Assembly (NCBI GenBank): GCA_964633205.1
Contig: CAZWFN010000001.1
Location: forward strand, 114,219-178,218
DNA from: an uncultured Myxococcales bacterium
Lineage (GTDB): Bacteria; Myxococcota; B64-G9
DNA: 64,000 nt
Reading direction: 5' to 3'
Position 1 is the first letter of the stretch, and the number at the start of each line of letters is the position of its first letter. The notes under the pieces were generated by a model that did no database searches, was not told the DNA's origin, and saw nothing but the letters and a program-made list of their open reading frames with translations. Shown in pieces: positions 3,681-59,777 of this stretch. Made by a program: the position numbers and the translations under genes.

Positions 3681-3848
3681 GACTTCCCCTTCGATCAGAA
3701 GATATCACACCTTCCATTTCGCGGCAGCTGATCGGTGGAATCCTTTGACCGGCGCGGCGGTCCGTGGTGTGCTCGGGGCCATCGTTGGATGGTGTTTTTG
3801 TCAGCGCTCGATACCGGCCGTCGGGGCCGGGGTCCGGGGAAGACGGGC

Positions 3849-6800
3849 ATGGGCGTGGGGTCCGAGGAACAGCCTGGACAACCGCGGCCGTTGCGGGTGA
3901 CCGGGACGGCCGCCGCGCGTTACCGGTTGCGCGATCGGCGAACCGCCCGGCCGACCGAACGGGCCGCGGCGGCCGAGATCGGCCGCGGCGGCATCGGCCG
4001 GGTGCTGCTGGCCTTCGACGAGGACCTGGGCCGCGAGGTGGCGCTGAAGGAGCTGTTGCCCGGGTCCCGGGCCGTGGGCGCGGGAGCGGATGGGGCGGCC
4101 ACCGCGTCCGGAGCGGATCGCACCGCCGACGCCGCGGCCCGCTTCCTGCGCGAGGCGCGGGTGACCGGCCAGCTGGAGCATCCCAACATCGTGCCGGTCT
4201 ACGAGCTGGGCTGCAACGCCGGCGGCAACCTGTACTACACCATGAAGATGGTCCGCGGCCGCACCCTGGCCGAAGCCCTGGCCGACCGCCGCCGCCTCGA
4301 CGATCGGCTGCGCCTGCTGGGCCACTTCGTCGACCTGTGCCAGGCCATCGCCTACGCCCACTCCCGCGGGGTCATCCACCGCGACATCAAGCCCGAGAAC
4401 GTCATGCTGGGCGAGTTCGGTGAGACGGTGGTGCTCGACTGGGGCCTGGCCAAGGCGCGCGGCGCCGAGGACATCCGCGGCTCGAAGATGGAGCGCGAGA
4501 TCCAGCTGCTGCAGGATGCGGCCAGCGGCCACACCGTCGACGGCACCGCCATCGGCACGCCGGCCTACATGAGCCCGGAGCAGGCCGAGGGCCGCCTGGA
4601 CGCCATCGACGAGCGCTCCGACGTCTGGAGCCTGGGCGCGGTGCTCCACCAGATCCTGACCGGCCGGCCGCCCTACACCGGAGCCAACGCCTACGAGGTG
4701 CTCAAGCGCGCCCTGAGCCAGCCGGTGCCGCCGCTGACCGAGACCTGTCCGGAGGCCCCGCTCGAGCTGGCCGCCGTCTGCCGGCGGGCCCTGCAACGCG
4801 ACCCCGACCGCCGCTACCAGTCGGCGCAGGAGCTGGCCACTGAGATCGATGCCTACCTGACCGGAGGTCGGGTGCGGGCCTACACCTACTCGCTCGGTGA
4901 CATGCTGCGCCGCGCCTATGCCCGCCACCGGATGGCCTTCGTCACCGGCGCCATCGCGCTGGTGCTGCTGCTGGCGCTCGGCGTCTGGTCCTACCTGCGC
5001 CTGGTGGCCGACCGCGATCGGGCCAACCAGCTGCGCGCCGCGGCCGACGCGGCCCGCACGGCCGCCCGGCTGCGGCTGGCCGACGCCCACCTGGAGGGCG
5101 CCCGTGCCGCCCGCCTGCGCCGCGATCTGCTCGAGTCGCGGGCCAAGCTGCGCTCGGCGCTGGAGGTCGGCGACTCGGCCGCCGCCCGCTTGTTGTGGGG
5201 CCAGCTGCAGACCGATCCGCTGATCTGGCGCCGCCGGCTGGGGGCCATCGTCTACGACGTGGCCTTCGCCCCCAGCGGCCGCGAGGTGGCCGCGGCCGGC
5301 CACGACGGCTCGATCTGCTTGATCGACGCGCACACCGCCCAGCTGCGGGTGCTGCGCGGCCACCGGCCCTGGGTGGCCAGCCTGGACTACGCCCCCGACG
5401 GCCGGCGCCTGGCCTCGGCCGGTTCCGACCAGCAGGTGCGCATCTGGCGGGTGGCCGACGGCCGGTTGCTGCACGAGCTGGCCGGCCACCGGGCCGCCAT
5501 CCACGACGTGGCCTTCCACCCCGGCGGCCGCCTGCTGGCCAGCTGCGCCCAGGACCGCAGCCTGCGGCTGTGGGATGCCCGCAACGGCGAGCTGCTGCAG
5601 ACCGTGACCGAACCGGCGGTGATCCACTGGGTGCTGGCCTTCACCCCGGACGGCGAGCGGCTGTGGGCCGGCGGCCGCGACGGCAAGCTGCGCGGCTACC
5701 GGGTGACCAAAGACCGCTTGACCGACCCGATCGCGCTAGCGCAACCGACCGGCGGGGCGGCGGCGCTGGCCATCGACCCCGCCGGCCGGCGCCTGGCCAG
5801 CGGCGGCAACAGCAACATCGTCTACCTCTGGGATCTGACCACCCTCGGCCCCGGCGCAGCACCGCTGCGCGCGCTGGCCGGACACCGAGACGGCATCGCC
5901 GAGCTGGCCTTTCACCCGCGACAACCGCGCCTGGTCTCGGCCAGCTACGACCACAGCGCCCGCATCTGGAACCTGGAATCCCCGGATGCGGCACCGGCGG
6001 TACTGCGCCAGCACGAAGAATGGATGGCCGGGGTGGCATTCGCTCCGGACGGCACGGCCCTGGCCACCGGCGCCGAGGATCGCCTGGTGGCCCTGTGGCG
6101 TTTGCCTCTGGACCAAGCGCACCGATCCGTCCGGCGCGGCCATGGAGACGTGGTCACCGAGCTGGCGGTCGCCCCCGACAGCCGGCTGCTGGCCAGCGGC
6201 AGCGCCGACCAGAGCGTGCGGCTGTGGGATCTGGCCGGCGGCCGCCAGCTGGCGGTGCTCGAGGGCCACGGCGACGACGTCCAGGGTCTCGGCTTCGCCG
6301 CCGACGGCACGCTGCGCTCGGCCGACTGGACCGGCCAAGTCTACCGCTGGCAGCGCACCGACGACCAGACCTGGCGCGGCGAGCCGCGGCGGCTGGCCGG
6401 TGACGCCGACCCCAACACCAGCGTGGAGTTCGGCCCCCAAGGCCGCTGGGCGGCGGCGGCCGACTACGATCGCAGCATCCGCCTGTGGGACCTGCGCAGC
6501 GGACGCGAGCGCAAGCTCGTCGGCCACGGTGATCTGATCCGGGAGCTGGACTTCGGCCCGGCCGGGCGGTTGTTGGCCAGCGCATCCTGGGACGGCAGCG
6601 TGCGCCTGTGGCGAACCGACAGCGGACGCTGCCAGGCGGTACTCGAGGGCCACCAGGGCCAGGTCAACAACGCCGTCATCGCCGACGACGGCCGCCGGCT
6701 CTACTCCACGGGTTGGGATCGGACGATCCGCCGCTGGGACCTGAAAGGCGCCAGCGGCCGGGTGGTCCACCGCGGCGACGCGCGCTACGAGACGCTGGCC

Positions 6801-7949
6801 GTCAGCCCCGACGGCGCCTGGCTCGCCGGCGGCACCGAGGCCGGTGGCATCGAGCTGCTGGCCGTACCGAGCGGTGAGCTGCGCCGGCTGACGGGCCACC
6901 GCGACATGGTGTCCAACCTGGCCTTCGACCCGGCCAGCCGTCACCTGTTGTCGGCCGGCGACGACGGCACGGTACGCTGCTGGGCTTTGCCCGCAGGAAA
7001 ACCCTGTTGGCGGGCACCGCTGCTGCTCCCCGGTGCCGGCCCCCCCCGGATGCTCAGCCACCGCGGCTGGGAGATCCCGGGCGGCGGATCCTGCCCGCCA
7101 CCGCGACCGCGCCGCAACTGGCTGGCGGCCGCCGAGCAATCGCTGCGGGTCTCGCTGACCACCGACAGCGCCTGCCTGCGGCTCGGCGGCGACGCCTTCG
7201 CGCTGTGGGACCGCAGGACCGATGAACGCCGCTATCGCCGGCAGCGCGCCGGCATCGAGCAGGTGCTGGCCCTGCCCGGCGGCTGCGCGGTGCGGTTTGG
7301 CGGCCGGGTGGAGCTGCACGCCGCCGCGGCTGCCCCGCGACCGCTGGCCACCGCGGTGACGGCCATGGCCCGGGTGGATGAACGGTTGCTGCTGGCCGAT
7401 GATCAGGGGGTGGGCATCTTCGAGCCCAGCGGCCTGGATCGCGCCCGGCTGCCGGTGGGTGCCGGTGCCACCGCCCTGACCCTGCTGGCCGCTGCGGCCG
7501 GCGAGCAGCTGGCCATCGGTTATGGCGACGGCACGGTCGAGGTGGCCGCTCTGACCGCCGGCGGCCGGGGCCGCAACCTGTCGCTCGACCAGGTGGCCTC
7601 GTGCCCGGTGGTCGCGCTGCGCCCCGGCCCGCGGGGCACGCTGGTGATCGCCTATGCCAATGGACTGATCGGTCTGTGGGACGTGCGCTCCGGCGCCCGG
7701 CTGGACGCCATCCGGCTGCACGGGCCGCTGGCCCACACGGCCTTGCACGCCGGAAAGCTGTACGTCGTGACCGAGCTCGGCGACCACCTGGCCTGGGACC
7801 TGTCCATCCTGGATTGCGCATACTGCAGTCTGCTGGAGCGCGTCTGGCGGCGGGTGCCGGTGGTCTGGGAGGGCGGTCGCCCAGTGGCCCGCCCGCGACC
7901 GGCCGATCACGCCTGTGGCCGCGCTGGCGCCAGCCCGGCCCGGCGCTGA
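3849..7949 (+). CDS. Ser/Thr protein kinase fused to a long WD40 beta-propeller region
   Basis: Kinase motifs VALKEL, HRDIKPENVML, DWGLAKA and GTPAYMSPEQ. About 20 WD40 units follow (GH...WD patterns, e.g. SASYDHSARIWNL, SADQSVRLWDL). Start taken at the third in-frame ATG (3849); 3735 and 3789 are alternatives. Confidence 0.85.
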   Translation: MGVGSEEQPGQPRPLRVTGTAAARYRLRDRRTARPTERAAAAEIGRGGIGRVLLAFDEDLGREVALKELLPGSRAVGAGADGAATASGADRTADAAARFLREARVTGQLEHPNIVPVYELGCNAGGNLYYTMKMVRGRTLAEALADRRRLDDRLRLLGHFVDLCQAIAYAHSRGVIHRDIKPENVMLGEFGETVVLDWGLAKARGAEDIRGSKMEREIQLLQDAASGHTVDGTAIGTPAYMSPEQAEGRLDAIDERSDVWSLGAVLHQILTGRPPYTGANAYEVLKRALSQPVPPLTETCPEAPLELAAVCRRALQRDPDRRYQSAQELATEIDAYLTGGRVRAYTYSLGDMLRRAYARHRMAFVTGAIALVLLLALGVWSYLRLVADRDRANQLRAAADAARTAARLRLADAHLEGARAARLRRDLLESRAKLRSALEVGDSAAARLLWGQLQTDPLIWRRRLGAIVYDVAFAPSGREVAAAGHDGSICLIDAHTAQLRVLRGHRPWVASLDYAPDGRRLASAGSDQQVRIWRVADGRLLHELAGHRAAIHDVAFHPGGRLLASCAQDRSLRLWDARNGELLQTVTEPAVIHWVLAFTPDGERLWAGGRDGKLRGYRVTKDRLTDPIALAQPTGGAAALAIDPAGRRLASGGNSNIVYLWDLTTLGPGAAPLRALAGHRDGIAELAFHPRQPRLVSASYDHSARIWNLESPDAAPAVLRQHEEWMAGVAFAPDGTALATGAEDRLVALWRLPLDQAHRSVRRGHGDVVTELAVAPDSRLLASGSADQSVRLWDLAGGRQLAVLEGHGDDVQGLGFAADGTLRSADWTGQVYRWQRTDDQTWRGEPRRLAGDADPNTSVEFGPQGRWAAAADYDRSIRLWDLRSGRERKLVGHGDLIRELDFGPAGRLLASASWDGSVRLWRTDSGRCQAVLEGHQGQVNNAVIADDGRRLYSTGWDRTIRRWDLKGASGRVVHRGDARYETLAVSPDGAWLAGGTEAGGIELLAVPSGELRRLTGHRDMVSNLAFDPASRHLLSAGDDGTVRCWALPAGKPCWRAPLLLPGAGPPRMLSHRGWEIPGGGSCPPPRPRRNWLAAAEQSLRVSLTTDSACLRLGGDAFALWDRRTDERRYRRQRAGIEQVLALPGGCAVRFGGRVELHAAAAAPRPLATAVTAMARVDERLLLADDQGVGIFEPSGLDRARLPVGAGATALTLLAAAAGEQLAIGYGDGTVEVAALTAGGRGRNLSLDQVASCPVVALRPGPRGTLVIAYANGLIGLWDVRSGARLDAIRLHGPLAHTALHAGKLYVVTELGDHLAWDLSILDCAYCSLLERVWRRVPVVWEGGRPVARPRPADHACGRAGASPARR

Positions 7950-24734: not shown

Positions 24735-25238
24735 CTAGCGGTGCCGGCGCCGCCCGGCCAGAATGTCTCCCACCAACGGCGCCTCCTCGTCCAGCACCAG
24801 CCAGAGCTTGACATCGCGCCGGCCGTCATCCGGCTCCGGGAAGCGGATCCACTGCACGATGCGCTCGATGCATTGGGCATACGCCGTTCCGGCGAAACGC
24901 GGGGTGAGCAAGCCGACCTGCCGGGCCTTGCCGGCCGAGTCGATCTGGAAGCGGATCCCCAGCCGCTGGCCCTTGAGTTCGGGCGGGTCGATGTCCAGGG
25001 CGCGCTGGGCACAGAGCTTGAAGTTGCTGACGTGGCGCCGGGTGACCAGGTGGTCCGGACCGGCTCGCTCCTGCCCGTGCTGGGACTCGATCCGCACCGG
25101 CTCGGCGCTGAAATCGTTGCTACGCAGCTCCTGCTTGCTACAACCCGCACCGGTCGTCAACAGCAGTCCCGCGATCAGCAGCACTCCGCCGCAGGATCCG
25201 CAAGCCAGAAAGCGACCGGCTGGTTGTTCCCGGTTCAT
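24735..25238 (-). CDS. lipoprotein with AgmX/PglI-C-terminal (TonB-C-like) domain, paralog 1
   Basis: Lipobox LLLTTGAGCS. C-terminal domain RHVSNFKLCAQR...GQRLGIRFQI...AQCIERIVQWIRFPEP, clearly paralogous to the next gene. Confidence 0.55.
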   Translation of the reverse strand: MNREQPAGRFLACGSCGGVLLIAGLLLTTGAGCSKQELRSNDFSAEPVRIESQHGQERAGPDHLVTRRHVSNFKLCAQRALDIDPPELKGQRLGIRFQIDSAGKARQVGLLTPRFAGTAYAQCIERIVQWIRFPEPDDGRRDVKLWLVLDEEAPLVGDILAGRRRHR

Positions 25239-25305
25239 CTTCGAACCTCGCTTCTCCTCCCTTCAATTGGTCGGTCGCGAGGTCCAGCAGCTTACAGATA
25301 CCGAT

Positions 25306-25348
25306 CTACACCCGACGCAAGACTTCGCTTGCGTCGGGTGTTGGCTTA
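25306..25348. repeat. 43-bp REP-like palindromic element, copy 1
   Basis: CTACACCCGACGCAAGACTTCGCTTGCGTCGGGTGTTGGCTTA has a perfect 14-bp stem around a 6-nt loop. The identical 43 bp recurs reverse-complemented at 57576-57618. Confidence 0.7.
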
Positions 25349-25378
25349 GCAAGCGCCTATACGGCTACCGCTGTCGAT

Positions 25379-25819
25379 TCAGGAGCCGTGGCGCAAGGGT
25401 TGGTCCTCGTCGAGGTAGATGCGCAGGCGGACTTGCCGGGAATGCGCGCCCGGGTCGGGGAAGCGGATCCAGGTCAGGATGCGCTGGACGCAGGAGGCGA
25501 AGGCCGAACCCTTGAAGACCGGGCTGACGATCTTGACCTGGTCGGCCCGCCCCCCGGGCTCGATGGTGAACACCACGTCCAGCGGTTTGCCGCGCAGGGA
25601 GGAATCATCGACCAGCTTGCTGCGCTGGACGCAGAGCTTGAAGTTGCTCAGATGGCGCTTGGAGACCATGTCGGTGGCCTCATCGAGTTCCATCACCTCC
25701 TGGGGCACGGCTTCTTCGGCACGCAGCACCGGGCCCCGTGAGCAGCCAGCGGCGAACGCCGTCAGCGCAGCCAGGGCGACCGCTGCGGCTGACCACCCGG
25801 CAATCGACTTGCGCAGCAT
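25379..25819 (-). CDS. lipoprotein with AgmX/PglI-C-terminal (TonB-C-like) domain, paralog 2
   Basis: Lipobox LTAFAAGCS. KRHLSNFKLCVQR...GKPLDVVFTI...ASCVQRILTWIRFPDP aligns residue-for-residue with paralog 1. Confidence 0.55.
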   Translation of the reverse strand: MLRKSIAGWSAAAVALAALTAFAAGCSRGPVLRAEEAVPQEVMELDEATDMVSKRHLSNFKLCVQRSKLVDDSSLRGKPLDVVFTIEPGGRADQVKIVSPVFKGSAFASCVQRILTWIRFPDPGAHSRQVRLRIYLDEDQPLRHGS

Positions 25820-56685: not shown

Positions 56686-57444
56686 ATGGAGCGCCACCGG
56701 TCTTTCTTCGCGGCCAGCACCCTGGCGCTGGTGCTGCTCACCGGCCCAGCCGCCGCCGGCGCTGATGCGGGTGAGCGCATCCTGCGCCTGATGGATGCCC
56801 AGCTGACCTCGGCCGACAGCCAGTACTTCGAATACGAGATGATCACCCGCACCCCGGGCCGCGGCCAGCGCAGCACGGTCTTCGAGGTGACCATACAGGG
56901 CGATCAGCGCCGGCGGCTGGAGTTCCTCGCCCCGGGCGACGTCAAGGGCATGCGGGTGCTGATCCTGTCGCTCGACCGGATGTACGTCTACCTGCCGGCC
57001 TACCGCAAGGTGCGCCGGGTGGCCAGCCACGTGCGCGACCAGGGCTTCATGGGCTCGGCATTCAGCCACGACGACATGTCGGTGGTCACCTATGCCGACA
57101 AGCTCAGCGGCCGCCTGCTCGCCGAGGACGACGAGCACTGGACGGTCGAGGCGGTGCGGCGTGCCGACAGCGACTACCGCTACGCCAAGCTGCGCCTCGT
57201 CATCCGGCGCGACATCCGCCATCCGGCGCGCATCGAGTACTTCAACGCCGCTGGCCAAAAGGTCAAGACCGAGACCCGCAGCGCCTATGAGTGCCGCGGC
57301 CAGCACTGCAATCCCAAGCGCATGACCCTGGTGGATCACACCCGCGGCGGGGTGACCAGCGTGCTCGAGCGGCGGGCGTGGAAGATCGAACCCGAGGTGC
57401 CGGCCAACTTCTTCAGCGTCCGCTCGCTGCAGCGCCGTCGCTAA
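56686..57444 (+). CDS. LolA-like outer-membrane lipoprotein-sorting-family protein
   Basis: An AGGAGG RBS precedes the ATG. Signal peptide and LolA-like beta-sheet pattern. Confidence 0.55.
   Translation: MERHRSFFAASTLALVLLTGPAAAGADAGERILRLMDAQLTSADSQYFEYEMITRTPGRGQRSTVFEVTIQGDQRRRLEFLAPGDVKGMRVLILSLDRMYVYLPAYRKVRRVASHVRDQGFMGSAFSHDDMSVVTYADKLSGRLLAEDDEHWTVEAVRRADSDYRYAKLRLVIRRDIRHPARIEYFNAAGQKVKTETRSAYECRGQHCNPKRMTLVDHTRGGVTSVLERRAWKIEPEVPANFFSVRSLQRRR
57408..57437 (+). repeat. 30-bp direct repeat, copy A (3' end of the LolA-like gene)
   Basis: CTTCTTCAGCGTCCGCTCGCTGCAGCGCCG is identical to 57817-57846. Confidence 0.7.
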
Positions 57445-57453
57445 ACCCAAGGT

Positions 57454-57475
57454 CCCCCGCCCGAAGGGCGGGGGA
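57454..57475 (+). terminator. GC-rich stem-loop after the LolA-like gene stop
   Basis: CCCCCGCCC-GAAG-GGGCGGGGG, 10 nt after the TAA stop. No U-tract follows. Confidence 0.45.
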
Positions 57476-57575
57476 TGACAAAATAAATGACTTAGAGAGC
57501 CCATAGGCCCTTGGTGATGCCCGAACGACAACATGTTGGTCGAAACGGATGCAACCACATAAGAGCGGGTACGAT

Positions 57576-57618
57576 TAAGCCAACACCCGACGCAAGCGAA
57601 GTCTTGCGTCGGGTGTAG
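57576..57618. repeat. 43-bp REP-like palindromic element, copy 2 (inverted relative to copy 1)
   Basis: The reverse complement is identical to 25306-25348. Confidence 0.7.
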
Positions 57619-57816
57619 AGTCTTGATCCGTACGTTCTCCGCAGCTTGCGTAGAAGTTGTCGATGCTCGACAACGGTGCATCAACTCCAACGCGGCCCGA
57701 CCTTTTTGGTTGCGGCGGCGGTTTGTGCCGTGCCCTTGGGTGCGGAGCCGCGATGGGGCGGGGAGCTTCGCTCTAGCGCGGCCCGGGACGAGTGGGCCCA
57801 GCTCGCCCGCAGCCAG

Positions 57817-57846
57817 CTTCTTCAGCGTCCGCTCGCTGCAGCGCCG
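57817..57846 (+). repeat. 30-bp direct repeat, copy B
   Basis: Identical to 57408-57437; the 3 preceding bases also match at 2 of 3 positions. Confidence 0.7.
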
Positions 57847-57873
57847 CCGGCGGAAAGCTCCGGGCCTGATGCA

Positions 57874-58911
57874 TCAAGGGGCCGGCCACTCGACCACCTC
57901 GATGCGTTCCACCGCCTGGAGCCAGCGGTCGGCGTGCAGATCGCCCGCCAGCACCAGCTGAAAACGCCCGCCATCCGCGAGCGGCCGGCCGCCGCAGCGG
58001 TCGGCCAGCAGGATGCGATCGCCGCCGGGCGCGTATAGCTCGCCCGCCGACACCAGCACCTGGTAGCCATCGGGGGCCGACAGCACCACCGCCCGCTGCG
58101 GATGGAAGGCGAAGCCAGCCGCCTCCAGCAGCACGCGCAGCCGCACGCCGCTGTAATGCCGCAGGCCGTGGAAGCCGGTGCCCTCGCCGGTGCGCACCGC
58201 CGTCAACTCGCGCCGCGGCAGATCGGCCGGCAAGGCGTCGAAGGTGCGCGCCGCCACCCCTACCCCTTCCAGGCGGACTTCCGCTGCGTAGAGGCGCTGC
58301 CGGGCATCGCGCTTCGGCGCGGGCGACGCCGGGCGCGGCTCCACCACCGCGATCGCGACCACCGGCTCCACGGCCCGGTCGCCGTAGATCACCCCGGACG
58401 GCACCAGCTTGGGCAGGGCCACCCGGCGCTGCAGCTGCTCCAGCCGCGGCCGCGCTTCGGCCGGCTGGTGGCAGCGGCTGCAGGCCTTGTGGGGCCGCAC
58501 CGGGGTCCAGTCGGTGGCCAGAATGAAGCGGCCCGGATCGCTGTAGAACACCTCGCCCCAGGACAGCAGCACCGAGCGCCCCCGCCGATCGCGAACGGCG
58601 ATGGCCAGGTCGGTCGGCTTGCGGAAGGCGCCGGCGCTCTTGCCCAGCCGGGCCAGCTCCAGCACCTGCCGCAGCGACGCACCGCGATAGCGCATGGTGC
58701 CGTGGAAGCTGCCGTCGCGGTGCACCTCGCTGAGCTGAACTGCATGGTGTGGCAGGCGCTGCAAGTCGGCCAAGCGCAGCCGCAGCGGCTGGCCGACCGC
58801 GCCGCTGATGCGCAGTTCGGCCGGCCGGACCGCAGCCCCGGCTCCAGCCCCGGCTGCAGCCACCGCGGCCGCCAGCAGCAAGGCCCCGCTGCCTGTTGCG
58901 TACCGTGCCAT
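57874..58911 (-). CDS. secreted protein with two tandem sulfite-oxidase-fold (molybdopterin-oxidoreductase-like) domains and one CXXCH haem c motif
   Basis: Signal peptide. Two repeats carrying the W.GV.L..LL..AG ... P.RLV.PG....W...V..IEV pattern. CSRCH sits at nt 58468-58482 between the two domains. Confidence 0.55.
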   Translation of the reverse strand: MARYATGSGALLLAAAVAAAGAGAGAAVRPAELRISGAVGQPLRLRLADLQRLPHHAVQLSEVHRDGSFHGTMRYRGASLRQVLELARLGKSAGAFRKPTDLAIAVRDRRGRSVLLSWGEVFYSDPGRFILATDWTPVRPHKACSRCHQPAEARPRLEQLQRRVALPKLVPSGVIYGDRAVEPVVAIAVVEPRPASPAPKRDARQRLYAAEVRLEGVGVAARTFDALPADLPRRELTAVRTGEGTGFHGLRHYSGVRLRVLLEAAGFAFHPQRAVVLSAPDGYQVLVSAGELYAPGGDRILLADRCGGRPLADGGRFQLVLAGDLHADRWLQAVERIEVVEWPAP

Positions 58912-58934
58912 CCCGGACAGGCGCCTCCGTCGCA

Positions 58935-59777
58935 TCAGACCACTCCTTTCTCGGCTCCGGCGTCACGCCGGCGGCGGCCCAGCAGGCCTTCGACGTAGAA
59001 CCACAGCAACAGAATCAGCACCAGCCCGAAGGCCGGCAGGATGATCGGCAACCCCGGGTCGTAGACCACCAGCAGGCTCGGCCGCGGCCCGCTGGCCGCC
59101 GGGGTGGGCCCGGCATGATCGCAGCTGACCGCGCGGTCCGCGGCGGCCGGTCTCTTCTCCAGCGGTCGATCCAGCAGCAGGTGGCGACCGCGGAACGAAG
59201 CGGGGTCCAGGTGGACCACCTCCAACCGATCGCCCCCCGGCCCGCGCAGCCGGACCCGCTGCCGCGCCAGCCACTGGCCCAACCGCGAGCCGGGTGGAAA
59301 GGCCTCGCCCTCGAAGCCGATCACCTGCAGTTCGGCCCCGGCCACCTCGATCCGGCCGCCCGGCCCGGGCAGGCCCAACCGCTGCCAGCTGCCCCACCCC
59401 AGGGTGATCGCATGGCCGACCAGGATCGCCCAGAACAGGATATGGATGGCGGTCGGGATCAGGGCCACCGTCCAACGGTGGCCGCCCAGCTCGCGCCGCC
59501 GGGGCCATAGGGTGCGCAGCCGTTGCAGGGCGCAGACCGCGGTGTTGATCGCCAGCGCCGTCAGGCACAGCAGCAACAACAGCAGCCACCAGCAACGATG
59601 CCACTCATCGGCCAGGTGGCGGGCCAGCCAAATCGGGGTGGCCAGACGGTTGAGCTGGCCGAACAGGGCCTTGTCCGAGGCGTACAGACCGCCGATCAGC
59701 ATGCAGCCGGCCGCCGCCAGCAGCAGCCAGAAGGCCAGCCGCAGGTCCCCCATCGCGCGCCACAGCCGCAGCCACAC
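58935..59777 (-). CDS. compact ResB-like (CcsB-family) membrane protein
   Basis: N-terminal TM, then an LFGQLNRLATPIWLARHL...WWLLLLLLCLTALAINTAVC ResB-like segment, a TM with conserved His (WAILVGHAIT), a periplasmic region, and a C-terminal TM. GTG start is 1 nt after the upstream gene's stop. The track ORF's N-terminal 100 aa is an out-of-frame overlap. Confidence 0.5.
   Translation of the reverse strand: MWLRLWRAMGDLRLAFWLLLAAAGCMLIGGLYASDKALFGQLNRLATPIWLARHLADEWHRCWWLLLLLLCLTALAINTAVCALQRLRTLWPRRRELGGHRWTVALIPTAIHILFWAILVGHAITLGWGSWQRLGLPGPGGRIEVAGAELQVIGFEGEAFPPGSRLGQWLARQRVRLRGPGGDRLEVVHLDPASFRGRHLLLDRPLEKRPAAADRAVSCDHAGPTPAASGPRPSLLVVYDPGLPIILPAFGLVLILLLWFYVEGLLGRRRRDAGAEKGVV

Follow-up and report, generated by a model that had tools for sequence, protein, structure and literature searches.

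How does the end of a gene come to stand twice in a genome, once in its proper place and once a few hundred nucleotides downstream? The question is raised by a gap between two convergent genes in a 64-kb stretch of DNA from an uncultured Myxococcales bacterium (the whole analysed stretch is termed here the window), where the 3′ end of a gene for a LolA-like protein recurs shortly before a gene for a protein with a molybdopterin-binding oxidoreductase domain (Moco-domain gene; Table 1). A sequence-only reading of the window had taken this arrangement for the trace of a site-specific insertion with attL/attR-like ends or of a miniature element or, alternatively, for a segment encoding a structured non-coding RNA.

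The duplication itself is exactly as that reading had described it. When the whole window was scanned, two exact occurrences of the 30-mer CTTCTTCAGCGTCCGCTCGCTGCAGCGCCG were found, both on the + strand, with a start-to-start spacing of 409 bp and 379 bp between the copies; a third copy is absent from the window even if three mismatches are permitted, and dinucleotide shuffles produced chance matches in 0 of 100 trials (0 expected). The repeat extends to 38 nt with two mismatches, and the second copy ends 27 nt from the stop codon of the Moco-domain gene. A mosaic of local patches was rejected, as recurrences inside the window are limited to this 38-mer and to a 44-mer that belongs to a hairpin module. 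The LolA-like protein matches the Pfam LolA_like profile end to end (E=3e-34, profile 1-184/184 on residues 72-250 of 252), so that copy 1 represents the gene's natural C-terminus. GC3 equals 0.92 for the LolA-like gene and 0.89 for the Moco-domain gene, LolA-like orthologs show 98% amino-acid identity, and the Moco-domain ortholog P0126 is 99% identical. The 30-mer of copy 1 is identical in the relatives L002 and L009 and has one mismatch in L013. Exceptional conservation of these nucleotides was rejected, since the invariant run comprises 27 nt versus 32-47 nt elsewhere in the LolA-like gene.

Table 1. Features of the LolA-Moco locus (positions refer to the window).
Feature	Position	Strand	Description
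LolA-like gene	56686..57444	+	outer-membrane lipoprotein-sorting, PF17131; 252 aa, complete
Repeat copy 1	57403..57440 (exact 30-mer 57408-57437)	+	encodes the final LolA-like residues ...ANFFSVRSLQRR
Low-GC non-coding core	57445..57732		288 bp, 56.6% GC; unique to this genome; stands where the sister strain has a 5.96-kb island
GC-rich hairpin H1	57452..57476		11-bp stem, GAA loop; begins 8 nt past the LolA stop
Hairpin module	57566..57619	+	ACGATTAAGCCAAC, 14-bp perfect stem with 6-nt loop, then AGA; 55-nt, low-copy
8-bp palindrome	57656..57674		GTTGTCGA-TGC-TCGACAAC; single occurrence; -12.4 kcal/mol, z -3.3
Candidate island right-end remnant	57733..57780		CCCTTGGG and GGGAGCTTCGCTCTAGC (16/17) common with L002 DNA just past the last island gene; part of the 57743-57785 hairpin
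Repeat copy 2	57812..57849 (exact 30-mer 57817-57846)	+	non-coding; putative relic of a LolA 3′ end
Native Moco-proximal spacer	57857..57873		L002 homology restarts here
Moco-domain gene (convergent)	57874..58935	-	353 aa; molybdopterin-binding oxidoreductase domain, Pfam PF00174 E=7e-9

Is the locus correctly assembled? The middle 233 nt (57496-57728) rest on one assembly and contain the genome-repeated 44-mer, and contigs of the same sample in Logan break on both sides of them, so that the contig of the metagenome-assembled genome (MAG) might have joined the LolA-like and Moco-domain genes through the repeats, hiding or inventing the middle of the segment. Against such an artefact, which is scarcely credible, both junctions (the LolA stop with the AT-rich DNA that follows, and copy 2 with the Moco-domain gene) are reproduced exactly in the Logan contigs L001, which runs up to 57495, and L012, which starts from 57729. 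Both 30-mers thus lie within independently assembled parts, and the join restores the LolA-Moco neighbourhood of all relatives.

The DNA between the copies had been described as a low-GC segment. This is true of the core, which compares with 70.4% GC for the window, whereas the part from 57733 to 57873 reaches 74%. The open reading frames of the segment carry no GC3 coding signal, which marks it as non-coding; the 112-aa frame that spans copy 2 has no Pfam match, and a decayed coding remnant was rejected, as tblastx matched the hairpin module only. The GC stem-loop reported at 57454-57475 was recovered as hairpin H1 (-24.3 kcal/mol, z -3.9). It is terminator-like on the - strand, is without a U-tract on the + strand, constitutes the sole terminator-like match in 57300-58000 and has no counterpart in the loci of relatives; H1 is probably the LolA terminator. 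The palindrome with the TGC loop does form a hairpin, at the position given in Table 1 and not at 57657-57676 as first reported, and an additional hairpin that had escaped the sequence-only reading lies at 57743-57785 (-29.7 kcal/mol, z -2.7). Most likely the segment is today merely a 3′ intergenic region, and most likely it does not constitute an autonomous or mobilisable element.

Comparison with close relatives revealed three states of the LolA-Moco gap: 60 nt, 5.96 kb and, in the window, 429 nt. The 60-nt "empty" gap is found in one clade (L013-16), diverged by ~10%. Two other clades, represented by L002 and L009, carry in this place an island of four ordinary genes with native GC (5,962 bp in L002), among them MORN-repeat and CarboxypepD_reg genes and no mobility genes. 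The closest relative of the window, the sister strain L002, is 98.4% identical to it in the LolA-like gene, yet carries the island. Clades with differing gap states are ~10% apart, and the island is ~90-91% identical between L002 and L009, like its flanks, which indicates that it is old; its recent horizontal spread between clades was rejected on the same ground, the ~91% identity being equal to that of the flanks. Within this group the gap is a hotspot of structural change, as it measures 60 nt, 429 nt or 6 kb at 2-10% divergence in one species-level group. The LolA-Moco neighbourhood is seen in all relatives; the distant ortholog L021 has other right-hand neighbours and is unable to polarise the events. 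Promoter regions are unalignable between clades that are ~10% diverged in the coding gene.

Homology between the window and L002 ends at 57444 and restarts at 57857. Inside the repeats, to the left of copy 2, the window keeps 16 of 17 nt of the right end of the island, collinear and within tens of nucleotides of the expected place, which argues that the window once had the island. As the sister strain has the island and its right end remains in the window, the present interior would be a remodelled remnant and not an inserted unit. Stretch 57733-57780 shows no significant similarity to the empty-site spacer, and a homolog search with the last gene of the island gave no matches. A second 30-mer was seen at none of the relatives' loci examined (the right junction in the L009 clade is not covered), and the 288-bp core has no counterpart at their orthologous loci. 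Thus the proposal that a duplicated gene 3′ end flanks DNA which relatives lack holds; a clean insertion of 379 bp into an empty site does not, given the island of the sister and its remnant in the window. Differences between the window and L002 show no clustering at the junctions. The changes therefore appear as discrete local events, and import of a long diverged tract was rejected for this reason.

Duplicated gene ends around strain-specific DNA are familiar from genomic islands that occupy gene 3′ ends and leave attL/attR scars, such as tyrosine-recombinase islands and cis-mobilisable elements, e.g., the CIMEs of Streptococcus thermophilus. The locus shares with them a direct repeat, some tens of bp long and derived from a gene 3′ end, around DNA that relatives lack; on one side the gene retains a functional end, whereas the displaced copy on the other side is non-functional. 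It differs from them in that no integrase is present in or near the segment and the large insert of the relatives has native GC and ordinary genes; the interior here comprises 379 bp of non-coding DNA, the two repeats occur together in none of the relatives, and neither an excised form nor another copy is known. Neither the segment itself nor the Pfam domains of genes within ~9 kb on either side include a recombinase. Other copies of the segment were found neither in the window nor in the fetched loci, 185,579 species-representative genomes, JGI metagenomes, IMG/VR, or phage and plasmid records, the collections having been scanned with two exact patterns and not with the whole segment. With no recombinase within ~9 kb, no second copy and an island remnant inside the repeats, the proposed site-specific insertion or miniature element is supported only in part.

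Could the 409-bp unit nevertheless be a miniature integrative element or a CIME-like remnant, bounded by attL and attR and still excisable by a recombinase encoded elsewhere? Direct repeats of a gene 3′ end do bracket low-GC DNA that is missing in relatives, and the breaks of the same-sample Logan contigs at 57495 and 57729 could reflect a second haplotype; precise excision would leave a single hybrid 30-mer followed by GCGGAAAGCTCC. Relatives do have a single 30-mer, but the sole empty site belongs to the ~10%-diverged clade, the clade of the window itself is without a clean empty site, and the sister has a different, 6-kb insert. Moreover, the LolA-like gene of the sister ends in the same TCGCTAA as copy 1, so that copy 1 and the stop codon are native and were not brought by the segment. 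Together with the missing recombinase, the island-end remnant inside the repeats and the fact that neither the segment nor its ends recurred in anything searched, this makes an excisable element very doubtful. Several other types of element were rejected as well: a phage or plasmid origin (no blastn match, three viral scans empty); a transposable MITE (no terminal inverted repeats at the borders, a 30-38-bp repeat too long for a target-site duplication, single-copy); a dif/IMEX element (on anatomy); and a diversity-generating retroelement, for which a TR/VR pair of ~100 bp or longer, differing at TR adenines and with a reverse transcriptase nearby, was the definition applied, whereas the repeat has 38 nt with two differences (A/G, with the A in the gene, and T/C) and the neighbours have no RT domain. 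The practical warning is that a duplicated gene 3′ end beside low-GC DNA is insufficient to call a mobile element.

What then is copy 2? The bases by which it differs from copy 1 are those of other clades: the G is found in L009 and L013, and the C in L013. Copy 2 matches the LolA end of L009 at 35 of 35 positions and that of L013 at 33 of 34, including ...GCCGCCG, and it can be aligned with the gene end of L013 past the stop codon and on into the spacer, with 5 differences in 47 columns. Its position is that of the LolA end in the empty-site clade. A longer LolA pseudogene upstream of copy 2 was rejected, the alignment scores lying within those of shuffles. We favour, with a probability of roughly 0.5, the reading that copy 2 is an inert relic of an old duplication of the LolA gene end (~38 nt), and that the interior has been remodelled since. 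It is backed by the natural gene end in copy 1, the three gap states with an old island, the island-end remnant, the position and allele bases of copy 2, the native GC of an island without mobility genes, the discreteness of the changes, and a segment that is non-coding and has neither an Rfam family nor copies elsewhere; a recombinase is likewise missing within ~9 kb.

The order of events and the mechanism that we infer would be as follows. The ancestor would have had the LolA-like gene, a spacer of ~60 nt and the Moco-domain gene, as clade L013-16 still does. The ~6-kb island would have entered at or just before the LolA end in the common ancestor of the clades of the window, of L002 and of L009, with the LolA-like gene keeping or receiving a working 3′ end and stop codon (copy 1) and the old end (copy 2) being displaced beyond the insert. 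This could have proceeded by a Campbell-type single crossover or, equally possible, by homology-facilitated illegitimate recombination (HFIR), with the left crossover in the LolA-like gene and the right, illegitimate join 38 nt before the stop codon of the recipient; neither route would require a dedicated integrase. After the split from L002 (1.6% divergence), all of the island but ~20-45 nt at its right end would have disappeared from the window, which would have come to hold the 288 bp of low-GC non-coding DNA, including an orphan copy of the low-copy hairpin module, and L002 would instead have lost ~80 nt containing copy 2. HFIR and insertion-associated partial gene duplications occur in naturally transformable or recombining bacteria. 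HFIR would explain why the left junction is homologous and lies in a conserved gene, why the right one is arbitrary, why mobility genes are lacking and why identity stops where coding constraint does; in contrast to the present locus, it usually deletes recipient DNA and does not leave a duplicated end, and its demonstration here would need a donor. If the relic reading is right, a duplicated gene end can persist as a scar in a convergent-gene gap.

Several observations speak against an old relic. No relative was found with island and copy 2 together, and L002-type loci are without copy 2 (in L009 the right junction is not covered). If the relic is older than the ~10% split, a neutral 38-mer that keeps 36-37 of 38 identities is only moderately likely by a rough estimate (0.05-0.2), or else occasional gene conversion has to be assumed. 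At least three separate indels in ~400 bp are needed on two short branches, the downstream flank of copy 2 agrees with the L013 spacer at 7 of 9 nt, which is statistically insecure, and the origin of the 288-bp core is not explained. An alternative is a recent, complex repair event in the lineage of the window, in which the island was lost through a break or replication collapse in the LolA-Moco gap and the DNA was rejoined by microhomology-mediated template switching or by end-joining with templated patches; copy 2 would then be a young patch, templated by the LolA 3′ end at a distance of 409 bp, other pieces would come from elsewhere in the genome, and L002 would represent the ancestral state. 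The perfect identity of the 30-mers (30/30) and the lack of copy 2 in L002 allow every difference to be assigned to the short branch of the window; the indels concentrated within ~400 bp have flanks that differ by only 1-2%, and the partial matches beside the 30-mer (GCCA, CG) fit the size of microhomology at template switches. The 20 nt of L002 that correspond to 57857-57873 are native spacer homologous to that of L013 (z 3.6), and for this reason L002 looks unrearranged there. On the other hand, a young patch requires coincidence for the other-clade bases at both flanking mismatches and for the L013-like stop codon and spacer after copy 2, neither the window nor any locus yielded a donor for the 288-bp core or the 34 nt that precede copy 2, and the hairpin module of the core is closer to the flanks of a copy in a related MAG (L011) than to the other copy in the window. 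We regard such a repair event as possible, if rather unlikely.

The module had been described as the second copy of a REP-like palindrome. That it is a copy proved right: an exact 44-nt inverted match lies at 25305-25348 on the - strand. Membership of a REP-like dispersed family was rejected by the collection scans and a covariance-model search, as three copies are known in total. The third is at 4754-4807 of L011, with its loop flipped, ~150 nt upstream of a DUF3800 gene (PF12686 E=1e-14). In the window the hairpin with the 14-bp stem (57583-57616) has a folding energy of -27.1 kcal/mol (z -7.7). The flanks of the module are conserved along with the hairpin in all three contexts, and the better match of the core's module to the L011 flanks means that it was not simply templated from the 25.3-kb copy. 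The exact-stem pattern was met at one locus in 185,579 species-representative genomes and at none in JGI metagenomes, the covariance model added no copies in 161 kb, and exact look-ups of the 25.3-kb site returned matches from the same sample alone. The module resembles REP/BIME palindromes in being a perfect palindrome just downstream of genes, with a flipped loop in one copy, and differs from them in copy number (two in 64 kb, one in the species-representative MAG).

Does the segment, whatever its origin, work as an RNA? A functional structured RNA, either an sRNA on the - strand ending at H1 or an orphan motif of the DUF3800-associated type (the module), would be compatible with any of the origins proposed. 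A 372-nt stretch folds better than its shuffles (z -6.5 on the + strand, -5.2 on the -), which suits this reading, as does the terminator-like form of H1 on the - strand, but the signal comes from a few perfect palindromes, and elements acting at the DNA level are expected to give the same. Many unrelated RNA motifs are known to occur next to DUF3800 genes, on both sides and in both strands; among them, DUF3800-I to -XI were described (Weinberg et al., 2017; PMC5737381). The module is likewise a conserved hairpin with a UAA-containing flank, close to a DUF3800 gene in the related MAG, and the sole Rfam match at E<=10 over the segment was DUF3800-VIII (RF03075). This match is weak: it scores 15.7 bits (E=7.9), where the gathering score is 40.2, and skips 29 central model positions. 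Furthermore, neither window copy of the module adjoins a DUF3800 gene, covariation is not assessable since the stems are invariant across the three copies, the sigma-70 scan found no promoter-like site, and apart from the module nothing of the segment is conserved in relatives. In the 64 kb there are no Rfam families at the gathering score and no tRNA or tmRNA genes (ARAGORN). The structured-RNA alternative of the sequence-only reading was hence left without Rfam support, whether in the window at the gathering score or in the segment at E<=10, and we consider a functional RNA improbable.

The occurrence of the module by a DUF3800 gene is the one lead of wider interest, as it makes the module a candidate DUF3800-associated motif, from three copies only. 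It might represent a hitherto undescribed type of small element in uncultured Myxococcales, either mobile or an RNA, that is tied to low-GC DUF3800 cassettes, with the 288-bp core as a solo or decayed cassette that targeted the LolA-Moco gap; this is a long shot. No repeats were found to flank the DUF3800 cassette of L011. More speculative still is the idea that copy 2 has stayed intact because, within the Moco 3′ UTR, it is exactly antisense to the 10 final codons in the LolA mRNA. Were the cassette reading true, the breaks of the Logan contigs at 57495 and 57729 would reflect a fuller variant that coexists in this sample.

The 30-mer CTTCTTCAGCGTCCGCTCGCTGCAGCGCCG, which the sequence-only reading had described as an exact direct repeat, is non-random: a search of the whole window at up to 3 mismatches returned only its two exact occurrences, and 0 of 100 dinucleotide shuffles gave a match. 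The similarity reaches 38 nt with 2 mismatches, which directly flank the exact 30-mer, one per side. Copy 1 is the 3′ end of a complete LolA-like gene (Pfam LolA_like profile positions 1–184 of 184 covered, the match ending at residue 250 of 252), where the nucleotides are conserved no more than is usual in this gene, and the 30-mer is itself unstructured (z −0.45). Copy 2 is separated by 27 nt from the stop codon of the convergent molybdopterin-binding oxidoreductase-domain gene (Moco; 353 aa), which is where the LolA end falls in the clade with the "empty" gap. Since a shuffle test detected no significant LolA coding homology 5′ of copy 2, the duplication is limited to the terminal ~38 nt of LolA.

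Positions of the features (window coordinates unless another locus is named)
Feature	Position	Energy (kcal/mol)	z
LolA-like gene	56686-57444
Copy 1, exact 30-mer (38-nt similarity)	57408-57437 (57403-57440)
Copy 2, exact 30-mer (38-nt similarity)	57817-57846 (57812-57849)
Moco gene, minus strand (stop codon)	57874-58935 (57874-57876)
First 288 nt of gap	57445-57732
Hairpin H1	57452-57476	-24.3	-3.9
14-bp stem	57583-57616	-27.1	-7.7
8-bp palindrome	57656-57674	-12.4	-3.3
Further hairpin	57743-57785	-29.7	-2.7
Hairpin module, 44 nt	57576-57619
Inverted copy of module	25305-25348
Small lipoprotein genes, minus strand	24735-25816
Same-sample Logan contigs	L001 to 57495; L012 from 57729
Window/L002 homology	ends 57444; restarts 57857
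GGGAGCTTCG-like motifs, window	57761-57770; 57855-57866
GGGAGCTTCG-like motifs, L002	12686-12695; 12711-12724
Island, L002	6760-12721
Module, L011	4771-4804
DUF3800 island, L011 (CAYVQE010000046.1)	3791-4810
Tandem ~264-272-nt units	157-956
WD40-like coding repeats	5234-6992

Five further proteins share the 90%-identity cluster of the LolA-like protein, and the LolA loci form three clades, ~10% apart in LolA nucleotides. The window belongs with the sister-strain loci (L002–L008 and L017–L020; 98.4% identical in LolA), and between the LolA stop and Moco it has 429 nt where the sister strain has a 5,962-bp island. In the L009 clade (L009, L010, L023, L025) the left part of the island is present and the right junction lies beyond the sequence reached, while the L013 clade (L013–L016) has a 60-nt spacer, the "empty" state. 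Comparison with relatives bore out the earlier expectation of an insertion only partly: the 30-mer is single in each clade locus examined (the L009-clade right junction not being covered), but the sister strain carries an island, not an empty site. The flanks of L002, the sister-strain locus, are 98–99% identical to the window as far as the breakpoints, the left one falling right after the LolA stop. A distant ortholog (57% identity) keeps the left synteny and cannot polarise the events, because its right-hand genes differ.

The island (66.7% GC) encodes proteins of 173 aa (no Pfam match), 417 aa (MORN_2 repeats), 946 aa (CarboxypepD_reg/SpaA-like) and 184 aa (MORN_2 repeats), with no mobility gene among the four. 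In the L009 clade it is ~91% identical, as are its flanks; it is thus an old island, passed on by vertical descent. This clade has 53 extra nt after the LolA stop, ahead of the 173-aa gene. The presence of the island in both the L009 clade and the sister strain implies that the window lineage lost it recently. In keeping with this, inside the repeats, left of copy 2, the window has CCCTTGGG and GGGAGCTTCGCTCTAGC (16/17 nt) in common with the DNA after the last island gene of L002, collinear and no more than tens of nt from where they would be expected. This piece is taken for the end of the island, not for native spacer, because its similarity to the empty-site spacer is not significant (z 0.7), unlike that of the 30 nt nearest Moco in L002 (z 3.6).

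Copy 2 is identical to the L009 allele at 35/35 positions and to the L013 allele at 33/34, ...GCCGCCG included, and its alignment with the L013 gene end continues through the stop codon and for a few nt more into the spacer, with 5 differences over 47 columns. At both differences from copy 1, the base of copy 2 occurs in another clade. These allele states point weakly to an ancestral or other-allele source and not to a fresh copying of copy 1; weakly, since the A/G site among them is also polymorphic inside the L009 clade. We consider, with a probability of about 0.5, that an old duplication of the 3′ end of LolA left copy 2 behind as an inert relic, a new example of a familiar type of genomic scar. 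DNA would have entered at the LolA end, and duplicated it, in the common ancestor of the clades with the island, by either Campbell-type crossover or homology-facilitated illegitimate recombination; LolA would have retained a functional end, copy 1 followed by TCGCTAA (shared with L002), the old end being stranded beside Moco. Later, the window, which now has a 288-bp low-GC filler, would have lost the island interior, and L002 the ~80 nt that held copy 2. The island and copy 2 are seen together in no relative (L009-clade right junction not covered), and it is only moderately likely that a neutral 38-mer would have changed so little after the clades separated. The old duplication may have included part of the spacer besides the gene end. 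Right of the variable segment, GGGAGCTTCG-like motifs number two in the window, two in L002 and one in the empty-site clade; of the two, only the Moco-proximal one has statistical support for homology.

At least three indels distinguish the window and L002 gaps (288 bp in the window for about 5.9 kb in L002; 23 nt; and about 80 nt with copy 2 in the window against about 20 nt in L002). Their clustering would be accounted for, together with the perfect identity of the 30-mers and the unrearranged look of the L002 spacer, by the main rival reading, which places all the differences on the short branch of the window, in a single complex repair event that used templated patches; the template for copy 2 would be the gene end, 409 bp off. 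Such an event is possible, if doubtful: it turns both the allele states of copy 2 and the L013 resemblance downstream of it into coincidence, and donors of the other segment pieces were not found.

The gene-end insertion proposed from sequence held in so far as non-native DNA is flanked by the duplicated end, at a site that varies; nothing points to an active or self-contained element, or to a known RNA. A dedicated integrase has no support, because no recombinase lies within ~9 kb and the gene content of the island is ordinary. Blastn against 50,697 phage and 72,556 plasmid records gave no match, distinctive segment pieces had no exact match in IMG/VR and JGI metagenomes, and only the 38-mer and a 44-mer of the segment recur within the window. 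An att-bounded miniature element, as first suggested, is decidedly unlikely.

Low GC, noted for the whole segment, applies to the first 288 nt of the gap (56.6% against 70.4% for the window) but not to the remaining 141 nt (74%). The hairpins listed earlier are real, their folding energies lying below those of shuffles, one further hairpin was added, and a 372-nt stretch as a whole is more stably folded than its shuffles, whichever strand is taken. These stable palindromes are the sole positive support for a functional RNA, which is rather improbable: Rfam gave no family at its threshold in the segment or the whole 64 kb, and at E≤10 the segment had two chance-level hairpin matches only, one being RF03075 DUF3800-VIII (15.7 bits, where the gathering score is 40.2). 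No tRNA, tmRNA or sigma-70-like promoter was found, and the single terminator-like site is H1, the GC-rich hairpin after the LolA stop, on the minus strand. None of the segment ORFs is gene-like (GC3 0.53–0.76 against 0.89–0.92 for real genes here). Same-sample Logan contigs confirm both segment junctions; the middle 233 nt come from the window assembly alone, with no second assembly. Misassembly of this middle is scarcely credible and would leave both 30-mers in place. The k=31 contigs stop at the middle's edges, not at the borders of the 44-nt module, the only known repeat between them; the breaks may be due to low coverage or to a second haplotype in the sample whose middle differs.

The module, formerly taken for a REP-like palindrome, is an exact inverted copy of a sequence lying within a tandem pair of paralogous genes, in the gap between them; both encode small lipoproteins (167 and 145 aa), neither with a Pfam match. 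Logan contig L024, from the same sample, stops inside that 25.3-kb copy, as a true repeat would predict. A scan of 185,579 species-representative genomes turned up one more locus with the stem pattern, in L011 (an L009-clade MAG of uncultured Myxococcales), which is not orthologous to either window site and shares the flanks ACGATTAAGCCAAC ... AGA, with the loop reverse-complemented. A covariance model of the three copies recovered no further one in 161 kb; a REP family was therefore rejected, and the module is a low-copy element of variable position. In L011 the module precedes a DUF3800 gene (PF12686, E=1e-14) by ~150 nt and sits on the margin of a ~1-kb island with 52% GC. Eleven unrelated RNA motifs of unknown function accompany DUF3800 genes (PMC5737381), and the module could be another, although it scores under the RF03075 threshold and neither window copy has a DUF3800 gene nearby. 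The DUF3800 island, situated between TonB-dependent receptor and methyltransferase genes, has no direct repeats around it, and a perfect TTGACA-N17-CATAAT stands on the L011 minus strand between the module and the DUF3800 start.

Elsewhere in the window, three tandem units (~70% identity) probably represent a repeated protein domain, and a run of WD40-like coding repeats has units ending ...CTGTGGGAT.
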